DNA from: Escherichia phage PECP20 | Reading direction: 5' to 3' (one strand) | Length of the DNA stretch: 64,000 nucleotides | Sequence record: OQ873415.1 | Shown: positions 1,747 to 55,293 of the stretch, piece by piece | Position numbering within the stretch: the first letter of the stretch is position 1 | Layout: every line of letters starts with the position of its first letter | Notes under the pieces: model-generated | What the model saw: the letters and a program-made list of their open reading frames with translations, nothing else | Databases searched by the model: none | What the model was told of the DNA's origin: nothing | Translations under genes and position numbers: made by a program

Positions 1747-2006
1747 TTAAAATATTCTCGCAGTTGGTCAAATCCACCAATATGACTTCCATCAGGAGCA
1801 AACACTTGAGGCATAGTCAATCCGACTTGTGATTCACGTCCAAGCTTAACCAGAAGCTCAGCAATTTTCTCATCATCAAAAACACCTTTTTCTGGCATAA
1901 CATTAATGAATTCGAATGGCTGTTTCTTAACAGTCAGCAATCGTTTCGCATTATCACAATAAATGCATTTATGAATAGTAGAGTCATACCCGTACACTTT
2001 AAACAT
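1743..2006 (-). CDS. nrdC: thioredoxin/glutaredoxin NrdC
   Basis: Start corrected to internal ATG (MFKVYGYDSTIHKCIYCDNAKRLL...), 87 aa, near-identical to T4 NrdC as recalled; CIYC redox motif. Confidence 0.9.
   Translation of the reverse strand: MFKVYGYDSTIHKCIYCDNAKRLLTVKKQPFEFINVMPEKGVFDDEKIAELLVKLGRESQVGLTMPQVFAPDGSHIGGFDQLREYFK
1744..1765 (-). repeat. 22-nt direct repeat copy 2, overlapping nrdC 3' end and next gene start
   Basis: Identical to 1429-1450. Confidence 0.8.
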
Positions 2007-2412
2007 TATTTTTCCTTTCATCGATTAAATATGCAATGCCAAATACAATACATGTAATAAAACCTGTGATACAGATAGAAACCAACAACACTGTACCAAA
2101 GAACCAAATCAAGTTATCTTTAGTAGTTTGTTTGATATCCATCTCACGAATTTCTATAGCTATCGTATCACCTTTATTCAGAAGCGTATAAAACGACGGT
2201 GATACACGCCTGTCAAAAACTCGTCCTTGCTCATCTTTATAGACTGCAATAAATTCTAATTTAGAATATTTTCCTGTAGATTGGCCTGAGATTAATTCCA
2301 CTACCTCCACAGGAATTACTTTAGTTTCCATGTAAGTATTCTGGCTGTTCCAAATGAATGGAATAATGGCAAAAACTAAAGCTGCGATAAAACAACGAAG
2401 GCTATATCTCAT
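1999..2412 (-). CDS. hypothetical membrane protein, 137 aa
   Basis: ORF track; hydrophobic N-terminal and C-terminal segments. Confidence 0.6.
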   Translation of the reverse strand: MRYSLRCFIAALVFAIIPFIWNSQNTYMETKVIPVEVVELISGQSTGKYSKLEFIAVYKDEQGRVFDRRVSPSFYTLLNKGDTIAIEIREMDIKQTTKDNLIWFFGTVLLVSICITGFITCIVFGIAYLIDERKNNV

Positions 2413-2717
2413 TATAATGTTCTCTCAAATTTGTGGAAGCATTTACGGCATTTCAATTTCAAGTTATCAGTGGTCCAGTTAACCAGTTGGACTTGGATAG
2501 TTCCACATTCCGGGCATGGATGTTTTGCTGCTGATTTGGCAGCATTTTCACGTCGTTCAACCATTTTCATTATTTCGTTCCATGCTGGAGGAACGAACTC
2601 TTCTTCACCGTGGATTTTATCTCGCTGAACAAATTCAATCTTTGAACTATCGTCAATAAACTTAACCAAGCCATGATTAGTGCTCATATCAATATCCTCT
2701 AAAAGACGTAGTTTCAT
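2412..2717 (-). CDS. hypothetical zinc-ribbon protein, 101 aa
   Basis: ORF track; CPECG...CRKC four-cysteine arrangement near C-terminus. Confidence 0.6.
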   Translation of the reverse strand: MKLRLLEDIDMSTNHGLVKFIDDSSKIEFVQRDKIHGEEEFVPPAWNEIMKMVERRENAAKSAAKHPCPECGTIQVQLVNWTTDNLKLKCRKCFHKFERTL

Positions 2718-3667
2718 TATAACACCTCAATGGCATTTCGTAAACCGTCCGCTTTCGCATTCAGAGTTTTTAACGATTTAGTCTGTTCTTTAATCTGGGC
2801 TTCGACTTCTTTCAGACGAGATTTGAGATATTCACGTTCTTCGCTCAAGTTGTCAACTTTTTCTACTTTAGGTTCTTTAATAGTCTTAAGTTTATACTCG
2901 TTAGGGTTCTTCAGCTTAATTCGGGTGCGAGAACTGTATAACATTGAACCGTTATCTTCGGATTCGTCGAACGTTTCAACAACATCCATAGTCTCTAACA
3001 ATGTAATAAGTTTATAAGACAATGAACGAACGGTTTTATTATGCTTATTAATTTCTTCAGCTTTCATGGTACCGAGATTACGTGAGTAGTAATAAGGAAC
3101 CTGGATATCAATTGATAATGATGCGTTACCATTACCGGTCGGTTTGAATACTGCAGTAACCCAATCTTTAACATGAACTTTATTTGTACGACAATCACCG
3201 CCCGTGAATAATTTACGAGAATGTTTAAAAAGCATATTCACTTGGTTATTGAATTCACAAGCAAATTTATCAGCGAATTTAGTTTCAGGAATGGTAGATA
3301 ACCAATCAGCCAAATGAGTCTTTTTAACATCATTAACAATAGTGAATTCAACCAAATCAGTTTTAGATGTCACAGATTTAATAAAGCTCGGTTTCATAAA
3401 GTTTTTAATGTTATCGCGAGCTACAGTAGAAGATAATAAACGAGAACGTTTGAACCATTGAAGCAGTGTCCCTAATGAATGAGAATACGCATTCTGAGTA
3501 TCTTTACAGATATGATTTTCTTGACCTGTGTATGTACCAAAATCGCGAAGAATACCACTTACTACATCTCGGTGTGGAACATCAAATCCTAGTGCACCAA
3601 CAGCGCGCTGGGCACGAACGTTAGCGATAAGACCGGCAAAGTATTCAATGTAATGTGAACGTGTCAT
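2717..3667 (-). CDS. hypothetical protein with C-terminal coiled coil, 316 aa
   Basis: ORF track; own early promoter at 3693-3726; C-terminal 60-80 aa heptad-like K/E-rich. Confidence 0.7.
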   Translation of the reverse strand: MTRSHYIEYFAGLIANVRAQRAVGALGFDVPHRDVVSGILRDFGTYTGQENHICKDTQNAYSHSLGTLLQWFKRSRLLSSTVARDNIKNFMKPSFIKSVTSKTDLVEFTIVNDVKKTHLADWLSTIPETKFADKFACEFNNQVNMLFKHSRKLFTGGDCRTNKVHVKDWVTAVFKPTGNGNASLSIDIQVPYYYSRNLGTMKAEEINKHNKTVRSLSYKLITLLETMDVVETFDESEDNGSMLYSSRTRIKLKNPNEYKLKTIKEPKVEKVDNLSEEREYLKSRLKEVEAQIKEQTKSLKTLNAKADGLRNAIEVL

Positions 3668-3692
3668 AATATTTTCCTCTCGTTAAGATAGA

Positions 3693-3726
3693 TTTATTAT
3701 ACTCCAACCATCCTTGGTTGTAAACC
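3693..3726 (-). promoter_or_regulatory. early sigma70-type promoter (GTTTAC -35, TATAAT -10) with imperfect palindrome in spacer
   Basis: Minus strand reads GTTTACAACCAAGGATGGTTGGAGTATAAT; near-identical copy at 4713-4746. Confidence 0.6.
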
Positions 3727-3729
3727 GTT

Positions 3730-4689
3730 TTATGATTTTAATGCATTCATTGCATTAAAAAGTTTAGAGTACTGCAACTGGAGATTCGTTACAACACTTT
3801 GAGCATCACGAAGCTTAGCTTGTGCTTTGTCAAGTTCAACGGACAGTTGGTCTGCAGTAGCCTTGATTTGGTTGTAATGATAATCTTCGGCCGGAAGAAG
3901 GTCATTAGAAACATTTAGTTTTACTGCCGACAGTTTGCACACATTTGGCAAACCTTTAAACATACCGGGTTGTGTCGGAGAATATGCGCTTAGAACCTCT
4001 GCATTACCGACTGGTGTTGCTGTGATATTGCCTTCGAACGTTGCATTTTCCTTTTTAAGATTTTGATAGTATTCAGAGTCTTTGTGCCACCATGGCGCAG
4101 GAACCTTTTTACCAATAGATACACGAGCCTGGATAGCGATATGGCCCTTATTCTTGATAGGGTCGATAATATTAAGCTCACGAGAATAAATTGCTTTAAT
4201 CTGGTGGATATTATCACCTAAAACTTCTAACGCTTGGTGGAATACACGAGCAACGTTATCGTTCTTAGGTTTATACGTGAGAGTGAACTCGTTCTCGCTG
4301 ATAACCATGATTTCCAACTTATCGTAAGTATATTTCAAATGTTTCATGTTAATTGCTTGAGGACGAATACGAGAAGCAATGGCCATCAGATTGTTAAGGT
4401 TATTCCGGAACTGCTTAGCGAAATATTGTCCTTCACCGCCAATACAAAAATTACGAAGTTTCTGTTTGGCTAATAAACGGCTGAACTCACCATTTTTAAT
4501 GAACTCTTTAACGGGCGTGTTAGTAACACATTCAAATTGAGTAAACATACGAGAAGTAATCCCATAATACGAACAGACTTCCTCAATCTCTTCAGGAGTT
4601 TTTACAGGCATACGGATAGGATTAGGTCCTGGAGTATATGCGTTCGAGGTAAATTCTTTGATAAGTTCTCTACGTGTAATAAAAGCCAT
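3730..4689 (-). CDS. hypothetical protein with C-terminal coiled coil, 319 aa
   Basis: ORF track; promoter at 4713-4746 nearly identical to the one at 3693-3726. Confidence 0.7.
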   Translation of the reverse strand: MAFITRRELIKEFTSNAYTPGPNPIRMPVKTPEEIEEVCSYYGITSRMFTQFECVTNTPVKEFIKNGEFSRLLAKQKLRNFCIGGEGQYFAKQFRNNLNNLMAIASRIRPQAINMKHLKYTYDKLEIMVISENEFTLTYKPKNDNVARVFHQALEVLGDNIHQIKAIYSRELNIIDPIKNKGHIAIQARVSIGKKVPAPWWHKDSEYYQNLKKENATFEGNITATPVGNAEVLSAYSPTQPGMFKGLPNVCKLSAVKLNVSNDLLPAEDYHYNQIKATADQLSVELDKAQAKLRDAQSVVTNLQLQYSKLFNAMNALKS

Positions 4690-4712
4690 TTTATATTCCT
4701 CATGTTGAAAAA

Positions 4713-4746
4713 TTTATTATACTCCAACCATCCTTGGTTGTACATC
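4713..4746 (-). promoter_or_regulatory. early promoter, duplicate of 3693-3726
   Basis: Plus strand ttattatactccaaccatccttggttgta repeated at both sites. Confidence 0.6.
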
Positions 4747-5740
4747 ATTCCTTAAGAAGTTTTACTACTTGAATAAGATTAGCTCGTTCTGTTTTATTTT
4801 TACCATTTAAGCCTGCTAATCGTGAGATTTCATCGTCAGTCTGTTGAATAGTTACATTAAGTTCGTTAATCAAAGCTTCAAAGTATTTGATTTGCTCAGC
4901 ATGTTTTGATTCAAATTTCTGAACCGGAATAACGTCTTGGTTCAGTTCATCAATAAGGTCTTTAAGAGCATCTTCTTGGTTGATATCGTATTCAACTTCT
5001 TTTATTTCTTCAACGAACTCGTTTTTATATCTAACATCTTTTAGTCCTGGTGCCGGTCCTGAAATCTCTTCTTTAAGAGTACAAACATACCCAATACGGT
5101 ATTGGATACCGTCTCGCTTGATATCAACTTCGTCGATAAATCCGCAATGTTTAAGACCAGAGCCGATTAGGTCAAAATATCCTTGACGTCGTCCTTCAAA
5201 CGTTACACGAACTACTAAGACAGTTTTGCCAGCGACCTTTTGAAGCTCACATTTATAAAAGTTCGTTGAACCTGAATAACGTGGATGAGTTTTAAAGTTC
5301 ATCTGACGATCTAGGCCCATTTGTAAACGTGCTGTTACGGCCATAAAACGTGTTTGGTTCTCGTTAAGATGAGCAACAATCCATTTCAAAGGCATTTTAC
5401 CCTGTTCACGACCGAACAAATCAGTACATCCTAGATTACGCAGGATGTTGTTAGAGTTAATCATCGACAGAACGTTAAGTTTATTCAGCGCGCTGAAGAT
5501 TCCATCAGCCATTGATTTTCCATAACCTTTACACGCTTTAATAAGTGCTCGCGGCAGATTAGTATAGATTTCAGACGGCATATGAAAATCAAATTTACTA
5601 GTCAGTAATTGATGAACTTGGATAGCAATTTGCTCGTAATTAAGTGCTCTGCGATCATTATGGTCTTTAAACCACACTTTAATCTGTGAAGCACATAAAC
5701 CGTTAATTTCATGTTTTACCGCATCAGATGTAATGCTCAT
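4745..5740 (-). CDS. hypothetical protein with C-terminal coiled coil, 331 aa
   Basis: ORF track; same architecture as the two ORFs downstream of it. Confidence 0.7.
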   Translation of the reverse strand: MSITSDAVKHEINGLCASQIKVWFKDHNDRRALNYEQIAIQVHQLLTSKFDFHMPSEIYTNLPRALIKACKGYGKSMADGIFSALNKLNVLSMINSNNILRNLGCTDLFGREQGKMPLKWIVAHLNENQTRFMAVTARLQMGLDRQMNFKTHPRYSGSTNFYKCELQKVAGKTVLVVRVTFEGRRQGYFDLIGSGLKHCGFIDEVDIKRDGIQYRIGYVCTLKEEISGPAPGLKDVRYKNEFVEEIKEVEYDINQEDALKDLIDELNQDVIPVQKFESKHAEQIKYFEALINELNVTIQQTDDEISRLAGLNGKNKTERANLIQVVKLLKE

Positions 5741-5802
5741 AACTATTTCCTCAGATTGAATTGGAACTCAAAACCATTATAACCCGTCCTTGGGTAAAGC
5801 GT

Positions 5803-6330
5803 TTATGCGTGAACCGTCTTTAAACGTTCTTCAAATTTCCGAAGAGTACTAATACGTTCTGCTTTCTGTTTTGTATAGTTTGCAATACGTTCTGAAGTGA
5901 GAGCGTATCGTTCGTTTACTGTTTCTTTCATGAAGTCAGGGATTTCACGAGAAGCTTTAATTTCATCAAACTTGTCGAGTACTGCCTGGTCTTCAGCGAT
6001 TAAATTTTCATACATCTCGATATCTTTCTTGATAAACTCGATATCTTCCTGGGTTACTTTGGATAAACGAGACGCTTTATCCTTTTTGTACTGCTCGTTA
6101 GTTTCACGAGACCAGAATAATGTACGTTTTTTGTTAGTGTTTTTGTAGACTTCCACAATTCCAACTGAATCGATGATAACAATCCAATTCCAGCGAGATT
6201 TGAAAATCTGACCTCCGTCCACGGTAATCTCGTTATCATAAGCAACGTCATTAAAGAACTTGCTTTGTGCTTCAGATTTAAATTTACCGTCGTTATAATT
6301 TACCAGGTTGAAAATATCTTTAGCGTTCAT
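5803..6330 (-). CDS. hypothetical protein, 175 aa
   Basis: ORF track; RBS GGAGG and early-promoter cassette immediately upstream. Confidence 0.7.
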   Translation of the reverse strand: MNAKDIFNLVNYNDGKFKSEAQSKFFNDVAYDNEITVDGGQIFKSRWNWIVIIDSVGIVEVYKNTNKKRTLFWSRETNEQYKKDKASRLSKVTQEDIEFIKKDIEMYENLIAEDQAVLDKFDEIKASREIPDFMKETVNERYALTSERIANYTKQKAERISTLRKFEERLKTVHA

Positions 6331-6344
6331 GTTTTACCTCCAGT

Positions 6345-6387
6345 AGTTGATAGGTCTATAATAACATAACCATAGACCTTGTAAACA
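6345..6387 (-). promoter_or_regulatory. early promoter cassette
   Basis: Minus strand GTTTAC-N17-TATTAT, with inverted repeat GGTCTAT...ATAGACC. Confidence 0.6.
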
Positions 6388-6388
6388 A

Positions 6389-6676
6389 CTAAAAGAAACT
6401 TTTTTCAGTATTTTTTCCACTGAACCAAACAGACTTCGGGATTTTTTGTAATTTTTCAGACTTAAGTTTCTCTTCCTGTTCTTTCTTATATACTCCCTTG
6501 TCGTACTGGAGCATCTCTAGGGCATTCTTTTGCAAACGATCTAAGGTAATTAAGGCTTTAGTTTTTCCTTTCAAGGAAGAGTCCTGGCGAACTTCCTCGC
6601 TATATTGCATCGTAGAACTAACCATACGATGTGCATACAGTTCGACTGCGGCTTTGATTTTTTGCATAAAATCCAT
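6389..6676 (-). CDS. hypothetical protein, 95 aa
   Basis: ORF track only. Confidence 0.5.
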   Translation of the reverse strand: MDFMQKIKAAVELYAHRMVSSTMQYSEEVRQDSSLKGKTKALITLDRLQKNALEMLQYDKGVYKKEQEEKLKSEKLQKIPKSVWFSGKNTEKSFF

Positions 6677-6814: not shown

Positions 6815-7816
6815 TTATTTCAGTAAAGTTACTTCAGAGATTTCCTCCCAACCATCTTTATCGGTTGAAATAAAATCTGCTACATAAAGAGCCGTACGTA
6901 ATGATACATTGCGAAGACGAGATACATTAGCCTTCATCCAGGACAATGCTTTATACGTTTCAGCATCAGTCAAGCCACGTTTCTGCATCATATCAGTAGA
7001 TAATATTACATCTTCAACTCGAACCATAATCTCTTCATTAGAGTGTACTCCAAGGTCGAGATACACTGAACGAGATACTAAAGCTTGAAGGTGTGGAGCA
7101 AGTTTCGAACCCCGTTCTAACTCTTTATCGATATCAACGTTTGTAATGAAAACGATAGTACCTTCAAACTCAAATTCTTTATCAATACCCTTATCCTCGA
7201 GATAAGATGACGCAGTGCTCCAACAAACTTTGCGTTTATCTCCGGTATCTAATGCTGCTTTAAGAAGGTTCAGGATGTCCATATCTGAGAATACGTCAAC
7301 GTCATCGATTAAGAGAACGCTGTCTTCATCACGGTTGAGCCAAAGTTGTTCGTAAAGGCCAATACCGGAGATTTTACCATTAATGCTTTTGTATTTGATG
7401 AAACCATTATCATTAGCATTATTAAGTGCTTTATCCAGAGAATACGTCTTACCAATACCAGCTGCACCTGAAATAATGAGTGAACGAATTTTGCCATCAA
7501 TAATGCCATTCGTCATCATGTTCATTACTTTAAAGCGTTTGTTGATACGAGTTTTCATATCTTCAGTGCTTTCAACAACTGCAACTGGTGACGTCTCAAC
7601 TCCTTCCATTACGATGTCTGATTTGAAGACCCATACTCCACGTTCAGAACCATCAATCATAACGAAAATTTTACCATCACCTAAGTGGGAACATTCAGGA
7701 TTAAGCTTTGCCGGGAACCATGTCTTTGTGGCAACATAAGAACCAGAGATTTCGTTATTACGATAGATACCTTTTTTGATTTGAACGTTGAACATTTTAT
7801 TCTCCAATTTACTCAT
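6815..7816 (-). CDS. P-loop NTPase (AAA-like ATPase) with about 110-aa N-terminal extension
   Basis: Walker A GAAGIGKT, Walker B VLLIDDVD, downstream FITN sensor-like segment; promoter cassette upstream. Confidence 0.75.
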   Translation of the reverse strand: MSKLENKMFNVQIKKGIYRNNEISGSYVATKTWFPAKLNPECSHLGDGKIFVMIDGSERGVWVFKSDIVMEGVETSPVAVVESTEDMKTRINKRFKVMNMMTNGIIDGKIRSLIISGAAGIGKTYSLDKALNNANDNGFIKYKSINGKISGIGLYEQLWLNRDEDSVLLIDDVDVFSDMDILNLLKAALDTGDKRKVCWSTASSYLEDKGIDKEFEFEGTIVFITNVDIDKELERGSKLAPHLQALVSRSVYLDLGVHSNEEIMVRVEDVILSTDMMQKRGLTDAETYKALSWMKANVSRLRNVSLRTALYVADFISTDKDGWEEISEVTLLK

Positions 7817-8205: not shown

Positions 8206-9195
8206 TTATTTATAGTAAGAATTATGATTTTCGAGATAGACTTGCTCAAGGAAATCATCCCAGAAACTCATATCTACTTTTTGTTGCATACCATTCTTGG
8301 CAGCTTGTTCTGACGCATGTTCAACTTGGTCAACGATATCTTCTAGGAATTCTTGTACAGTTTTAAACGTATGTTTACCAAGCTTAACATCGAGAATAAA
8401 TGGAGCATCCTGAAGTGGGTAAACCAGGTCGCCGGTTTTGTAAATTTCCAATAATTGAAGTCCACCACGACATGCATGACTCAATGCTTTCCAGTCAATA
8501 CCTTCGTTAGCTTCTGCTTTACGAGCACGTTCACCATAGTTCTCTTCCAGTTTAACCAGGATAGCATTGAACTCTTTATTGGTTAACGTGTCTTGGAATT
8601 TACGGTCTAACAGACTATAGAATGTTTGCTTACCTGTTTTCTCGTTTTCGGTTTCAACCCATGAAGCAAATTCACCTACAGGTAGAACATTCTTCATATG
8701 TGATAAACGAATTACTGCACCATTATCAAAGTATTGTCCCCATTCATTAGAACGTTTAAGGGCTTGACGAAGAACAGCCAGTCGAGAACCCTTGACACCG
8801 TATTTAGAAGCTTGCTTACGGACGTACCCTAAATAAGATTTCATGTTAGTGGTATAGAAACGAGACCTGTTATCTTGAATATACTTCCATACATCAGGCA
8901 AATCAGATTTAACTACTAGACTTGGTGGAGTATGAAGCATATCTAATGCGACGGTTTCACCATCTGCAGCTAGTTTAAAGAAATATTTGAGACTATATAA
9001 CTCATGGTCTACGTCGTCTTTTGTGTTCTTAGAAGATGTGTTATTCGTGTTCTTGCTCATATGTTCTTTAACGTTACCGGTCAAAATATCACGAGCATGA
9101 GGGACATAAATTTCTTTAAAATCGACGTCAGATTCAGGAGTAGACGTTCCATAAAGGTGGCTACCAAAGTAGCTTTTCATAATTGTTTTCATCAT
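8206..9195 (-). CDS. nucleotidyltransferase-fold protein (minimal-NTase signature) with about 200-aa C-terminal extension
   Basis: N-terminal GSHLYGTSTPESDVD fits the G-S-x3-G-x5-S-D-x-D pattern of Pol-beta-type nucleotidyltransferases; 329 aa. Confidence 0.7.
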   Translation of the reverse strand: MMKTIMKSYFGSHLYGTSTPESDVDFKEIYVPHARDILTGNVKEHMSKNTNNTSSKNTKDDVDHELYSLKYFFKLAADGETVALDMLHTPPSLVVKSDLPDVWKYIQDNRSRFYTTNMKSYLGYVRKQASKYGVKGSRLAVLRQALKRSNEWGQYFDNGAVIRLSHMKNVLPVGEFASWVETENEKTGKQTFYSLLDRKFQDTLTNKEFNAILVKLEENYGERARKAEANEGIDWKALSHACRGGLQLLEIYKTGDLVYPLQDAPFILDVKLGKHTFKTVQEFLEDIVDQVEHASEQAAKNGMQQKVDMSFWDDFLEQVYLENHNSYYK

Positions 9196-24972: not shown

Positions 24973-25200
24973 TTATTTTTTAATCAAATTGACATAAAAC
25001 TTGGCGTCTTCGGGGTGCATGCCTTCGCAGTATTCTTCAACCATGAACTTCTTAACAGCTTCATAAGGACCACTCAGATTAAGCTCGGTTGTCCAGAACT
25101 TGGAATCTTGTACTGAATCGATACGAACTTCAGGGTGACGGTTGCGAATAACTTCTTCTGTGTATTCATAATCAACGACATCAATACTAACTTTAGCCAT
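24973..25200 (-). CDS. hypothetical protein, 75 aa
   Basis: ORF track; RBS and promoter cassette upstream. Confidence 0.5.
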   Translation of the reverse strand: MAKVSIDVVDYEYTEEVIRNRHPEVRIDSVQDSKFWTTELNLSGPYEAVKKFMVEEYCEGMHPEDAKFYVNLIKK

Positions 25201-25219: not shown

Positions 25220-25260
25220 TGATAGGTCTATAGTAACACCATCCTTGGCGTTTGTACATC
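25220..25260 (-). promoter_or_regulatory. early promoter cassette
   Basis: Plus strand gataggtctatagtaacaccatccttggcgtttgtacat. Confidence 0.5.
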
Positions 25261-28856: not shown

Positions 28857-28898
28857 TTGATAGGACTATTATAACATAGTCCTATCGGCATGTAAACT
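28857..28898 (-). promoter_or_regulatory. early promoter cassette with inverted repeat
   Basis: Plus strand gataggactattataacatagtcctatc then gtaaac. Confidence 0.55.
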
Positions 28899-53310: not shown

Positions 53311-55293
53311 ATGTCACTTCTCTCTCCGGGCGTTGAGCTCAAAGAAACTACCGTACAGAGTACTGTAGTTAATAACTCCACTGGTACTGCTGCTCTGGCT
53401 GGAAAATTCCAATGGGGCCCTGCATTCCAGATTAAACAAATCACCGATGAAGTTGCATTGGTTGATATGTTTGGTACTCCTAATACGGATACAGCAGATT
53501 ATTTCATGTCTGCTATGAACTTCCTTCAATACGGTAATGACCTTCGTGTTGTACGCGCAGTTGATCGTGATACTGCTAAGAACTCATCTCCTGTAGCAGG
53601 CAATATCGAATTCACAATCTCAGCTGCAGGTAGTAACTATGCGGTTGGTGATAAAATTATCGTTAAGTATTTGTCCGAAACTGTTGAAGCAGATGGTTAT
53701 GTCACTTCAGTTGATGTCGATGGTAAAATCCTTAACATTTATATCCCAACCGGTAAAATTATTGCTCGTGCAAAAGAAATTAATGAATATCCGGCATTAG
53801 GTTCTAACTGGACCGCCGAAGTTGCCGGTTCTTCTTCTGGACTCTCTGGCGTTATTACAATTGGTTCTATCGTAACCGATTCAGGTATTCTGTTGACTGA
53901 AGTTGAAACTTCAGAAGAAGCTATTACTTCTCTAACTTTCCAAGAATCTATTAAAAAATATGGTGTCCCAGGCGTAGTTGCTCTTTATCCTGGTGAACTT
54001 GGCGACCGGCTCGAAATTGAAATCGTATCTAAAGCAGACTATGACAAAGGTGCTTCAGCCCAGTTAAAAATTTATCCTGATGGTGGTACTCGCGCATCTA
54101 CTGCTAAAGCAATCTTTGGGTATGGCCCACAAACTGATGACCAATATGCGATTATCGTTCGTCGTAACGATGCTGTAGTCCAGAGTGTAGTTCTTTCTAC
54201 TAAACGCGGTGAACGCGATATTTATGGTAGTAATATCTTTATTGATGATTTCTTTGCTAAAGGCGCAAGCAATTATATTTTCGCTACTGCACAAGGTTGG
54301 CCAAAAGGTTTCTCTGGTGTAATCAAACTGAGTGGTGGCTTATCATCTAATGAAACGGTTGACGCTGGTGATTTAATGGAAGCTTGGGATTTGTTTGCGG
54401 ACCGCGAATCTGTTAATGCGCAGTTGTTTATTGCCGGTTCTTGTGCAGGTGAATCTTTAGAAGTTGCTTCTACAGTTCAGAAACATGTTGTAGCAATTGG
54501 TGATTCTCGTCAAGATTGCTTGGTTCTTTGCTCACCACCACGTGCAACTATAGTCGGTATTCCTGTTAATCGTGCAGTTGATAATCTGGTTGATTGGCGT
54601 ACTGCATCAGGATCTTACACTGATAATAACTTTAATGTAAGTTCTACTTATGCTGCTATTGACGGTAACTATAAATATCAATACGACAAATATAACGATG
54701 TGAATCGTTGGGTTCCGTTAGCTGCTGATATTGCCGGTCTTTGTGCTCGCACAGACAATATTTCTCAGCCTTGGATGTCTCCGGCCGGTTATAACCGTGG
54801 ACAAATTCTTAACGTTATTAAGCTTGCAATTGAAACTCGTCAACCACAACGTGATCGTTTGTATCAGGAAGCTATTAACCCTGTTACTGGTACCGGTGGT
54901 GACGGATATGTTCTGTACGGCGATAAAACTGCCACTTCCGTTCCTTCACCATTTGACCGTATTAACGTTCGTCGTTTGTTCAATATGGTTAAAACGAACA
55001 TTGGTTCAGCATCTAAATATCGCCTGTTTGAATTGAACAACGCATTTACCCGTTCTTCTTTCCGTACAGAGACTTCTCAATATCTACAGGGTATTAAAGC
55101 TCTCGGTGGTGTATATAACTTTAAAGTTGTTTGTGATACTACCAATAACACCCCAGCAGTTATCGACCGTAATGAATTTGTAGCTACTTTCTACTTACAA
55201 CCTGCCCGCTCGATAAATTATATTACGTTGAACTTTGTAGCAACAGCAACTGGTGCCGATTTCGACGAACTGATTGGTGCTGTAGGTGGTTAA
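53311..55293 (+). CDS. 18: tail sheath protein gp18
   Basis: 660 aa; late promoter TATAAATA upstream. Confidence 0.95.
   Translation: MSLLSPGVELKETTVQSTVVNNSTGTAALAGKFQWGPAFQIKQITDEVALVDMFGTPNTDTADYFMSAMNFLQYGNDLRVVRAVDRDTAKNSSPVAGNIEFTISAAGSNYAVGDKIIVKYLSETVEADGYVTSVDVDGKILNIYIPTGKIIARAKEINEYPALGSNWTAEVAGSSSGLSGVITIGSIVTDSGILLTEVETSEEAITSLTFQESIKKYGVPGVVALYPGELGDRLEIEIVSKADYDKGASAQLKIYPDGGTRASTAKAIFGYGPQTDDQYAIIVRRNDAVVQSVVLSTKRGERDIYGSNIFIDDFFAKGASNYIFATAQGWPKGFSGVIKLSGGLSSNETVDAGDLMEAWDLFADRESVNAQLFIAGSCAGESLEVASTVQKHVVAIGDSRQDCLVLCSPPRATIVGIPVNRAVDNLVDWRTASGSYTDNNFNVSSTYAAIDGNYKYQYDKYNDVNRWVPLAADIAGLCARTDNISQPWMSPAGYNRGQILNVIKLAIETRQPQRDRLYQEAINPVTGTGGDGYVLYGDKTATSVPSPFDRINVRRLFNMVKTNIGSASKYRLFELNNAFTRSSFRTETSQYLQGIKALGGVYNFKVVCDTTNNTPAVIDRNEFVATFYLQPARSINYITLNFVATATGADFDELIGAVGG

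Follow-up and report, generated by a model that had tools for sequence, protein, structure and literature searches.

Divergent nrdC.3, nrdC.5 and nrdC.6 alleles and their hairpin promoter cassettes in a Mosigvirus phage

Genes and promoters at the locus

We analysed a 64,000-nucleotide (nt) stretch of Escherichia phage PECP20 (sequence record OQ873415.1; hereafter the window), in which three consecutive genes, here called wA, wB and wC, lie behind promoters that carry a short palindrome. The stretch is that of a Mosigvirus (an RB69-like T-even phage), with 99.8% identity to Mosigvirus genomes, and the three genes occupy a non-essential hyperplastic region with nrdC.8 on one side and nrdC.2 on the other. 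The three consecutive open reading frames (ORFs) of 316-331 amino acids (aa) that an initial annotation of this DNA had described are present to the nucleotide, all on the minus strand, and a GAGG Shine-Dalgarno sequence precedes each of them by 7-9 nt:

2717-3667, minus strand: wA, 316 aa, NrdC.3 ortholog of the NrdC.3/NrdC.4 family
3730-4689, minus strand: wB, 319 aa, NrdC.5-family protein, Pfam DUF7235
4745-5740, minus strand: wC, 331 aa, NrdC.6-family protein

A 29-nt string said to be shared by two of the promoters indeed occurs exactly twice, at 3694-3722 and 4714-4742, against an expectation of 0 in shuffled sequences. The identity runs on to 31 nt (3692-3722 and 4712-4742), with weaker similarity over ~53 nt at 87%. 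The palindrome CAACCA-N4-TGGTTG lies in the promoter spacer as described (3705-3720 and 4725-4740); it had been called imperfect, but both copies are perfect. The two promoters score 11/12 (wA; TTTACA-17-TATAAT, 3724-3696) and 10/12 (wB; TGTACA-17-TATAAT, 4744-4716) as sigma70 sites. The core of the palindrome, CCAAGGAYGG, is found upstream of all three genes, including the promoter of wC (5800-5776), which the initial annotation had missed, and in a fourth copy about 20 kb from the trio:

3692-3724, minus strand: cassette upstream of wA, with -35 TTTACA at 3724-3719, hairpin CAACCA-AGGA-TGGTTG at 3720-3705, GGAG, and -10 TATAAT at 3701-3696
4712-4744, minus strand: second cassette, upstream of wB, with -35 TGTACA at 4744-4739, the same hairpin at 4740-4725, and -10 TATAAT at 4721-4716
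5776-5800, minus strand: middle-type promoter upstream of wC, GCTTTA-CCCAAGGACGGG-T-TATAAT, with hairpin ACCC/GGGT and a MotA-box-like GCTTTA
25230-25258, minus strand: fourth cassette, TGTACA-17-TACTAT, with the CCAAGGATGG hairpin AACGCCA-AGGA-TGGTGTT

The -35 of the wB cassette abuts the wC stop codon. The fourth cassette lies upstream of a 75-aa ORF (24973-25200), and its -35 likewise abuts the stop codon of the upstream gene.

T4 MotA-dependent middle promoters were recognised by a (a/t)(a/t)TGCTT(t/c)A box with its centre at -30 and a -10 TATAAT some 12 bp away. The wC site reads cGCTTTA, 13 nt, TATAAT, with a box that lacks the leading T. It is orthologous in position and sequence to the near-identical T4 site GCTTTAtaCCAAGGATGGTATAAT, which is PnrdC.7, an experimentally mapped MotA-dependent middle promoter with its start site at 53325 (PMC2988021, Table 1). 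Like this MotA/AsiA-dependent promoter, the wC promoter combines GCTTTA-N13-TATAAT with the CCAAGGAYGG core and lies directly after nrdC.8; unlike it, the predicted promoter in the window precedes nrdC.6 and not nrdC.7.

Family membership and relatedness of the three proteins

The three genes are Mosigvirus alleles of the T-even early genes nrdC.3 (wA), nrdC.5 (wB) and nrdC.6 (wC), and the RB69 reference genome annotates them as nrdC.6, nrdC.5 and nrdC.3. The wA protein is 56% identical to T4 NrdC.3 over all 316 aa (E 2e-118) and matches PHROG 1435 (6e-102). Pfam PF26897, which lies outside the Pfam copy scanned here, is assigned to wA through the precomputed annotation of its homologs, where it is found on 33/33 close ones. 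The wB protein matches DUF7235 (PF23882) with 9.6e-120 and 400 bits (cut-off 30), residues 15-318 covering model positions 1-307 of 307. T4 NrdC.5 hits the same model (5e-126, 421 bits), and the two proteins are 25% identical (E 1e-11); wB also sits between nrdC.6 and the nrdC.4 or nrdC.3 position, as the NrdC.5 family does in T-even genomes. The wC protein is 29-33% identical to T4-type NrdC.6 proteins (E 3e-18 to 7e-33) and matches PHROG 2257 (1e-126), and the profiles of the two NrdC.6 subfamilies, wC type and T4 type, align at an hhalign probability of 99.8% (E 4e-29, 248 columns). In precomputed annotation the NrdC.6 family is PF26899.

In those of the T4-, RB69- and JS98-like loci fetched here that have retained the genes, the order is nrdC.8, nrdC.7 (T4 only), nrdC.6, nrdC.5, nrdC.4 and/or nrdC.3, nrdC.2; the exceptions are the deletion variants Pinarejo, ACG-C40 and ESCO47. 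Compared with the conserved hypothetical early proteins NrdC.3, NrdC.4 and NrdC.6 of T4, wA is thus a full-length NrdC.3 ortholog and wC a full-length NrdC.6 member in the same order, whereas the window phage lacks nrdC.4, carries its nrdC.7 homolog elsewhere and has alleles that are 29-56% identical to those of T4. In the T4 reference itself 1 nt is missing from the 3' part of nrdC.6 (locus L001, ~8100; GAGCTG-ATATT) when it is compared with other Tequatroviruses; this shifts the frame and removes the C-terminal helix, leaving a NrdC.6 of 275 aa vs 295 aa.

Between phage genera the trio diverges far more than the neighbouring genes. Identity between the window and T4 is 25% for NrdC.5, 29% for NrdC.6 and 56% for NrdC.3, compared with 88% for gp49, 92% for NrdC and 83% for NrdC.8 (78-92% for the whole set of neighbours when NrdC.10 and NrdC.11 are included). 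Among close relatives the ratio of non-synonymous to synonymous substitution rates (dN/dS) is 0.12-0.24, as expected of functional protein genes under purifying selection; these values rule out gene-wide positive selection. Word-indexed homolog searches with wA, wB and wC returned close relatives only, an exhaustive HMMER search from the wB alignment found just 2 clusters, and searches with profiles yielded nothing beyond coiled-coil noise in PDB sequences, NCBIfam and PADLOC.

BLASTP finds no similarity between wA, wB and wC in any pairing. At the level of profiles, however, two of the families behind them can be linked. A metagenomic protein, P0033, is a natural nrdC.5::nrdC.3 deletion fusion and gave false high scores until it was removed; two early hhalign matches contaminated by it (the NrdC.3/4 vs NrdC.5 tail at 91%, and the nrdC.3 subfamily vs T4-type NrdC.5 at 98%) were dropped, and all conclusions on paralogy come from profiles cleaned of P0033. 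With these, the merged NrdC.3/4 profile aligned to the merged NrdC.5 profile with a probability of 91.8% and E 7.4e-7 over 157 columns of the protein body, and removal of the helical tail left the match in place (89.6%, E 1.9e-6); controls, which were unrelated families from the same loci, gave E >= 0.03. NrdC.4 alone matched the NrdC.5 family with E 1.5e-5 over 250 columns, with none of the BLAST cross-hits that would betray contamination of this comparison, and a small independent alignment of NrdC.3/4 and NrdC.5 gave E 7e-5. Both families share the N-terminal motif (K)TRxxYIxxF. NrdC.3/4 and NrdC.5 (DUF7235), and hence wA and wB, are thus remote paralogs at the profile level.

NrdC.6 is tied to this group less directly. 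A joint NrdC.3/4/5 profile matched it with E 1.8e-4 over 117 columns and in the same register, where the best of 16 controls reached 0.048; joining the profiles strengthened the match ~170-fold or more. Across the families, three independent pairwise profile alignments recover the same motifs in the same register, and the C-terminal halves of NrdC.3/4 and NrdC.6 are also tied by collinear weak BLAST matches. Judged from these alignments, NrdC.6, and with it wC, is probably of the same ancestry.

All three proteins end in a predicted amphipathic helix. We scored heptads with a home-made scheme (not COILS) and a threshold at the 95th percentile of shuffles; windows above the threshold were found solely at the C-termini, with peaks at 279-306 (wA), 271-298 (wB) and 281-308 (wC). 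The fraction of K, E and Q in the last 70 residues is 0.36, 0.21 and 0.30, respectively. AlphaFold2, run on wA and wB with close homologs only as input, places a single long helix at 275-315 of wA (predicted local distance difference test, pLDDT, about 80) and at 266-318 of wB (pLDDT about 55-60). The helix of wC is broken at G310 and G313, and that of each protein ends L..(A/V)...LK. The C-terminal coiled coil proposed for all three was thus borne out by the heptad scores and the AlphaFold2 helices, but at a length of about 40-55 aa and not 60-80 aa. The low-confidence models of wA and wB have the same order of secondary-structure elements, with a predicted common layout of N-terminal helices, a long helix, three strands, a long helix, two strands, a linker and the 40-55-residue amphipathic C-terminal helix.

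The hairpin and recombination at the cassettes

The initial annotation had counted absence of the palindrome from orthologous promoters against its idea, but the palindrome is present there: the core recurs in the orthologous T4, JS98-like and Mosigvirus promoters. The arms around it differ from site to site, with stems of 4-7 bp across versions:

CAACCA/TGGTTG: Mosigvirus, two copies
GCCA/TGGC: T4 nrdC.3
CCACA/TGTGG: T4 nrdC.4
TACCA/TGGTA: T4 nrdC.7 and JS98-like nrdC.6
CATCCA/TGGATG and TTCCA/TGGAG: JS98-like nrdC.4
ACCCA/TGGGT: ESCO47 nrdC.6
CGCCA/TGGTG: window, about 25.2 kb

Across 15 distinct sequences, which were chosen for containing the core so that only the outer three pairs are unbiased, 87.8% of cells were paired vs 62% in shuffles, and controls with the arms slid gave 21-40%. 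There were 22 cells with changes on both sides of a pair, a count matched by 0/500 shuffles. As read from this alignment, pairing of the hairpin is kept by compensatory changes across phages. When folded as RNA, a 41-nt stretch with the wA cassette gives a structure of -7.5 kcal/mol in which the stem has 6 bp and the loop 4 nt. The hairpin is the predicted minimum-free-energy structure in 7/8 contexts, and in the remaining one it is the centroid. Behind it, the early-type copies carry GGAG-TATAATA, a sequence similar to a RegB/S1 site. Rfam gave no match in window positions 2300-6500. An intrinsic terminator was rejected at the level of the sequence: there is no U-tract after the stem, and a terminator scan finds nothing at these sites. 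The hairpin could influence how read-through transcripts are processed or how stable they are, it could be part of the architecture of the promoter, or it could be a signal for recombination.

The two identical copies form 31-nt direct repeats, 1020 bp apart, that bracket wB. In ESCO47, another Mosigvirus, nrdC.6 is followed directly by nrdC.3, without wB, and the junction lies inside the cassette: the left arm is of the wB-promoter type, and the right arm and downstream flank are of another type. At this junction nucleotide identity between ESCO47 and the window changes from 77% to 93%, and the synonymous divergence (dS) from 0.6-1.3 to 0.07-0.22, which places a recombination breakpoint inside the cassette. 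In moha, an extra small membrane ORF and then an 82-nt duplicate (91%) of the wB 3' end plus cassette precede wB, an arrangement as expected after integration of a circular intermediate. Phage records of the wB type number 132, compared with 154 each of the wA and wC types, a deficit that could partly reflect replacement by an undetected allele and not absence. Elsewhere, Pinarejo (locus L026, 4936-5149) has lost nrdC.6 but for a 45-codon remnant, and ACG-C40 (locus L032, 4805-5213) and P0033 are deletion fusions in which nrdC.4 is gone and an N-terminal portion of nrdC.5 runs into a C-terminal portion of nrdC.3.

Cassettes of a related kind are known as promoter-early stem-loops (PeSLs; Arbiol 2010; Comeau 2014). 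In the PeSL model, promoter/stem-loop cassettes mediate modular shuffling in the hyperplastic regions of T4-like genomes; degraded PeSLs have been reported at about 50-51 kb of the T4/PST map, and the PeSL early promoter consensus is TTTACW-N17-TAYWAT (PMC4122927). The copies described here resemble PeSLs in joining a sigma70-type early promoter (TTTACA-17-TATAAT, TGTACA-17-TATAAT) to a short stem-loop, in lying between small non-essential genes of hyperplastic regions (four in the window), in standing at indel or replacement junctions between close relatives (ESCO47, and the extended repeat of moha), and in the existence of middle-promoter versions, named PmSL. They differ in the place of the stem-loop, which is within the spacer that separates the -35 or MotA box from the -10, and in the conservation of the AGGA loop and inner arms; terminator activity is unlikely without a U-tract, and the terminator of a PeSL has no counterpart here at the sequence level. 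The nrdC.5 gene would have been lost or gained by recombination at the cassette, as described for PeSL cassettes, and the behaviour of the repeats fits the PeSL model better than an operator.

The initial annotation had regarded the locus as a locally duplicated expression module. The promoter module is indeed repeated, and remote paralogy holds for the nrdC.3 and nrdC.5 families and probably extends to the third, but the absence of BLAST similarity and the conserved gene order speak against a recent duplication of gene plus promoter. The gene duplication is ancient, and the near-identity of the promoters is best read as that of a dispersed, recombining promoter/stem-loop cassette.

One more promoter-like site adjoins the trio:

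2716-2744, minus strand: promoter-like site for nrdC.2, TTTACG-17-TATAAT with TG, inside the last codons of wA

It overlaps the end of wA, which encodes the C-terminal ..DGLRNAIEVL and stop, and this dual coding and promoter use may explain why the C-terminal peptide of wA is near-invariant in NrdC.3 alleles otherwise 56% identical. The window also holds a second class of promoter palindrome on the minus strand, an inverted repeat that straddles the -10 (for example gATAGGACTatgtTATAATAGTCCTATc), at sites with the first base of the -35 at 28896, 24972, 22214, 10550 and 6385. These repeats fit the 'AGNA-loop-TCNT' stem-loops reported for T4/PST PeSLs.

The genes flanking the trio are those of gp49, NrdC, NrdC.2, NrdC.8, NrdC.10 and NrdC.11. 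NrdC.10 and NrdC.11 are upstream neighbours (6815-7816 and 8206-9195, minus strand) and are conserved far better than wA, wB and wC: NrdC.10, with the Walker A motif GAAGIGKT, is 78% identical to its T4 counterpart, and NrdC.11, an annotated nucleotidyltransferase, 79%. A NrdC.7-like membrane protein (1999-2412, minus strand; 41% identical to T4 NrdC.7) is encoded between nrdC.2 and nrdC, whereas T4 nrdC.7 lies between nrdC.8 and nrdC.6. A small hydrophobic ORF of 66-71 aa stands between nrdC.6 and nrdC.5 in moha (L030, 2207-2407) and in JS98-like phages (e.g. L019, 7672-7887), with none in the window. RB69 nrdC.5 (L029, 3001-3959) was matched in three pieces, is annotated as 300 aa and is probably frameshifted. 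In many deposited GenBank genomes (loci L025, L028, L030 and L031 included) every nrdC.n gene is labelled 'thioredoxin'; this is an annotation error that has spread from the gene names, as only nrdC itself encodes a thioredoxin/glutaredoxin.

A probable counter-defence role and alternative readings

Expression of T4 nrdC.5 by itself enables a deletion mutant to infect cells with the SIR2-type defence Dsr1 again (Srikant, Guegler and Laub, eLife 2022; PMC9391042), and our literature search found no later mechanistic work on T4 NrdC.5. The wB protein resembles T4 NrdC.5 in matching the same full-length Pfam model, in its place between nrdC.6 and nrdC.3/4, in being early-expressed, and in consisting of a body and a C-terminal helix. 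It differs in being 25% identical and in having a promoter cassette of its own; T4 lacks this cassette, and its nrdC.5 directly follows nrdC.6. Because the T4 protein is sufficient for infection of hosts with Dsr1, wB would most likely serve to neutralise a protein of host defence. Given the paralogy, wA and wC would likely share this role, with a target that depends on the allele; binding of the target would fall to the variable body, and oligomerisation to the C-terminal helix. The pin protein inhibits Lon. Together with pin, the nearby gp49.2, an inhibitor of the OLD defence (PMC13096335), makes this a neighbourhood rich in host-interference genes.

The palindrome had been suggested as a possible operator, which would bind a dimeric phage or host regulator and so co-regulate the three genes. 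Its symmetry, its presence at four promoters of the window, the position of the core always between the -35 or MotA box and the -10, and an inner core CCA-AGGA-YGG that is almost invariant across genera and in both promoter classes would all suit such a site. However, the outer arms vary freely yet compensatorily (CAACCA/TGGTTG, GCCA/TGGC, CCACA/TGTGG, TACCA/TGGTA, CATCCA/TGGATG, CGCCA/TGGTG), and covarying arms around a fixed core point to selection for pairing and not for base-specific contacts. The spacing also drifts, by 0-3 nt relative to the -10 and up to 5 nt relative to the -35. We know of no T4 regulator with this site, and the operator idea is without specific support; we consider it unlikely. 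The hairpin may instead act in read-through early transcripts, by setting a 3' end, by protecting one, or by offering the adjacent GGAG-UAUAAUA to RegB or RNase E; that it overlaps the promoter would then be incidental packing. Its prominence in the folds, three G-U wobble pairs on the sense strand, and co-directional genes with no terminator-like site between them on the gene strand are consistent with this, as is the fit of GGAGUAUAAUA to 9/11 positions of the RegB/S1 consensus GGAGRAYARAA (PMC1702504). On the other side, the GGAG is absent from the middle-promoter versions, the stems are short and not unusually stable, and Rfam gave no match. Read on the opposite strand, the A-C mismatches of the closing pair become wobbles, so that counts of wobbles and mismatches leave the strand, and RNA or DNA as the level of action, undecidable. 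A role in RNA is a tentative possibility.

For the proteins, one could argue that only size and a helical tail are alike and that the weak profile similarity stems from composition. The lack of any pairwise BLASTP match, the control-level scores of NrdC.6 against each single family and the poor structure models would be expected on this account. It is nevertheless improbable, as the match of NrdC.3/4 to NrdC.5 (E 7e-7) survives removal of the tail and stands far from the controls, three independent profile alignments place the same motifs in register, (K)TRxxYIxxF is found in both families, and the joint profile strengthens the NrdC.6 match. Alternatively, the trio might join through the C-terminal helices into one hetero-oligomeric machine, in line with the conserved order and adjacency of the genes and the similar amphipathic ending of all three proteins. 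We think this most improbable: genomes without one member appear viable (ESCO47 without nrdC.5, Pinarejo without nrdC.6, ACG-C40 without most of nrdC.5, nrdC.4 and nrdC.3), the tail of the T4 reference NrdC.6 is gone by frameshift, and T4 nrdC.5 by itself rescues infection on Dsr1 hosts.

The reading we prefer, to which we assign a probability of roughly 70%, is that these are divergent genes, likely for defence blockers, behind hairpin promoter cassettes, with recombination at the repeats. In addition to the selection of the covariation sequences by their core and the possible undetected alleles of nrdC.5 mentioned above, several observations weigh against it. Single hairpins are no more stable than shuffles (z -1.7 to +0.4), and the hairpin has no U-tract and sits within the promoter spacer, whereas the original PeSLs have theirs upstream of the promoter. 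NrdC.6 scores E 0.03-0.14 against either single family, which is the level of the controls. Whole-model pLDDT values of 40.7 (wB) and 55.4 (wA) do not amount to a reliable three-dimensional model. For this reason, Foldseek found no informative match to the wA model in BFVD or PDB, the weak BFVD matches (E about 1e-2) being 320-350-aa proteins of other T4-like phages, and neither solved nor predicted structures led to a fold assignment. Finally, at 25% identity the anti-Dsr1 activity of T4 NrdC.5 is not confidently transferable to wB; the published neutralisation of Dsr1 concerns the T4 allele only, and NrdC.3, NrdC.4 and NrdC.6 have no experimentally assigned function.

The genes add new alleles to families that are known but largely uncharacterised, and for one of these families a counter-defence role has been published; the cassette is a variant within a class already described. 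Remote paralogy between NrdC.3/4 and NrdC.5 and the covarying hairpin inside these promoters both appear to be unreported in the literature that we searched. The published phenotype in this gene set is that of T4 nrdC.5 alone; if NrdC.3/4 and NrdC.5, and probably NrdC.6 as well, are divergent paralogs, the single anti-Dsr1 gene turns into a family, with many allele classes 25-56% identical between genera that could be screened against defence systems, and this would help to explain host-range differences among the T-even phages used in therapy. The cassette, with its core, covarying arms, direct repeats and genomes that differ at it, offers a testable example of how accessory genes are gained and dropped, and it defines a small conserved element within strong promoters, T4 PnrdC.7 being an experimentally mapped one. 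More speculatively, nrdC.3, nrdC.4, nrdC.5 and nrdC.6 may form one diversified counter-defence family with a helical tail, in which each allele class disarms a different immune protein and the cassettes are the joints of an integron-like swapping. The cassettes would then possibly be recombination or RNA-processing signals by which T-even phages swap, lose and regain these genes.

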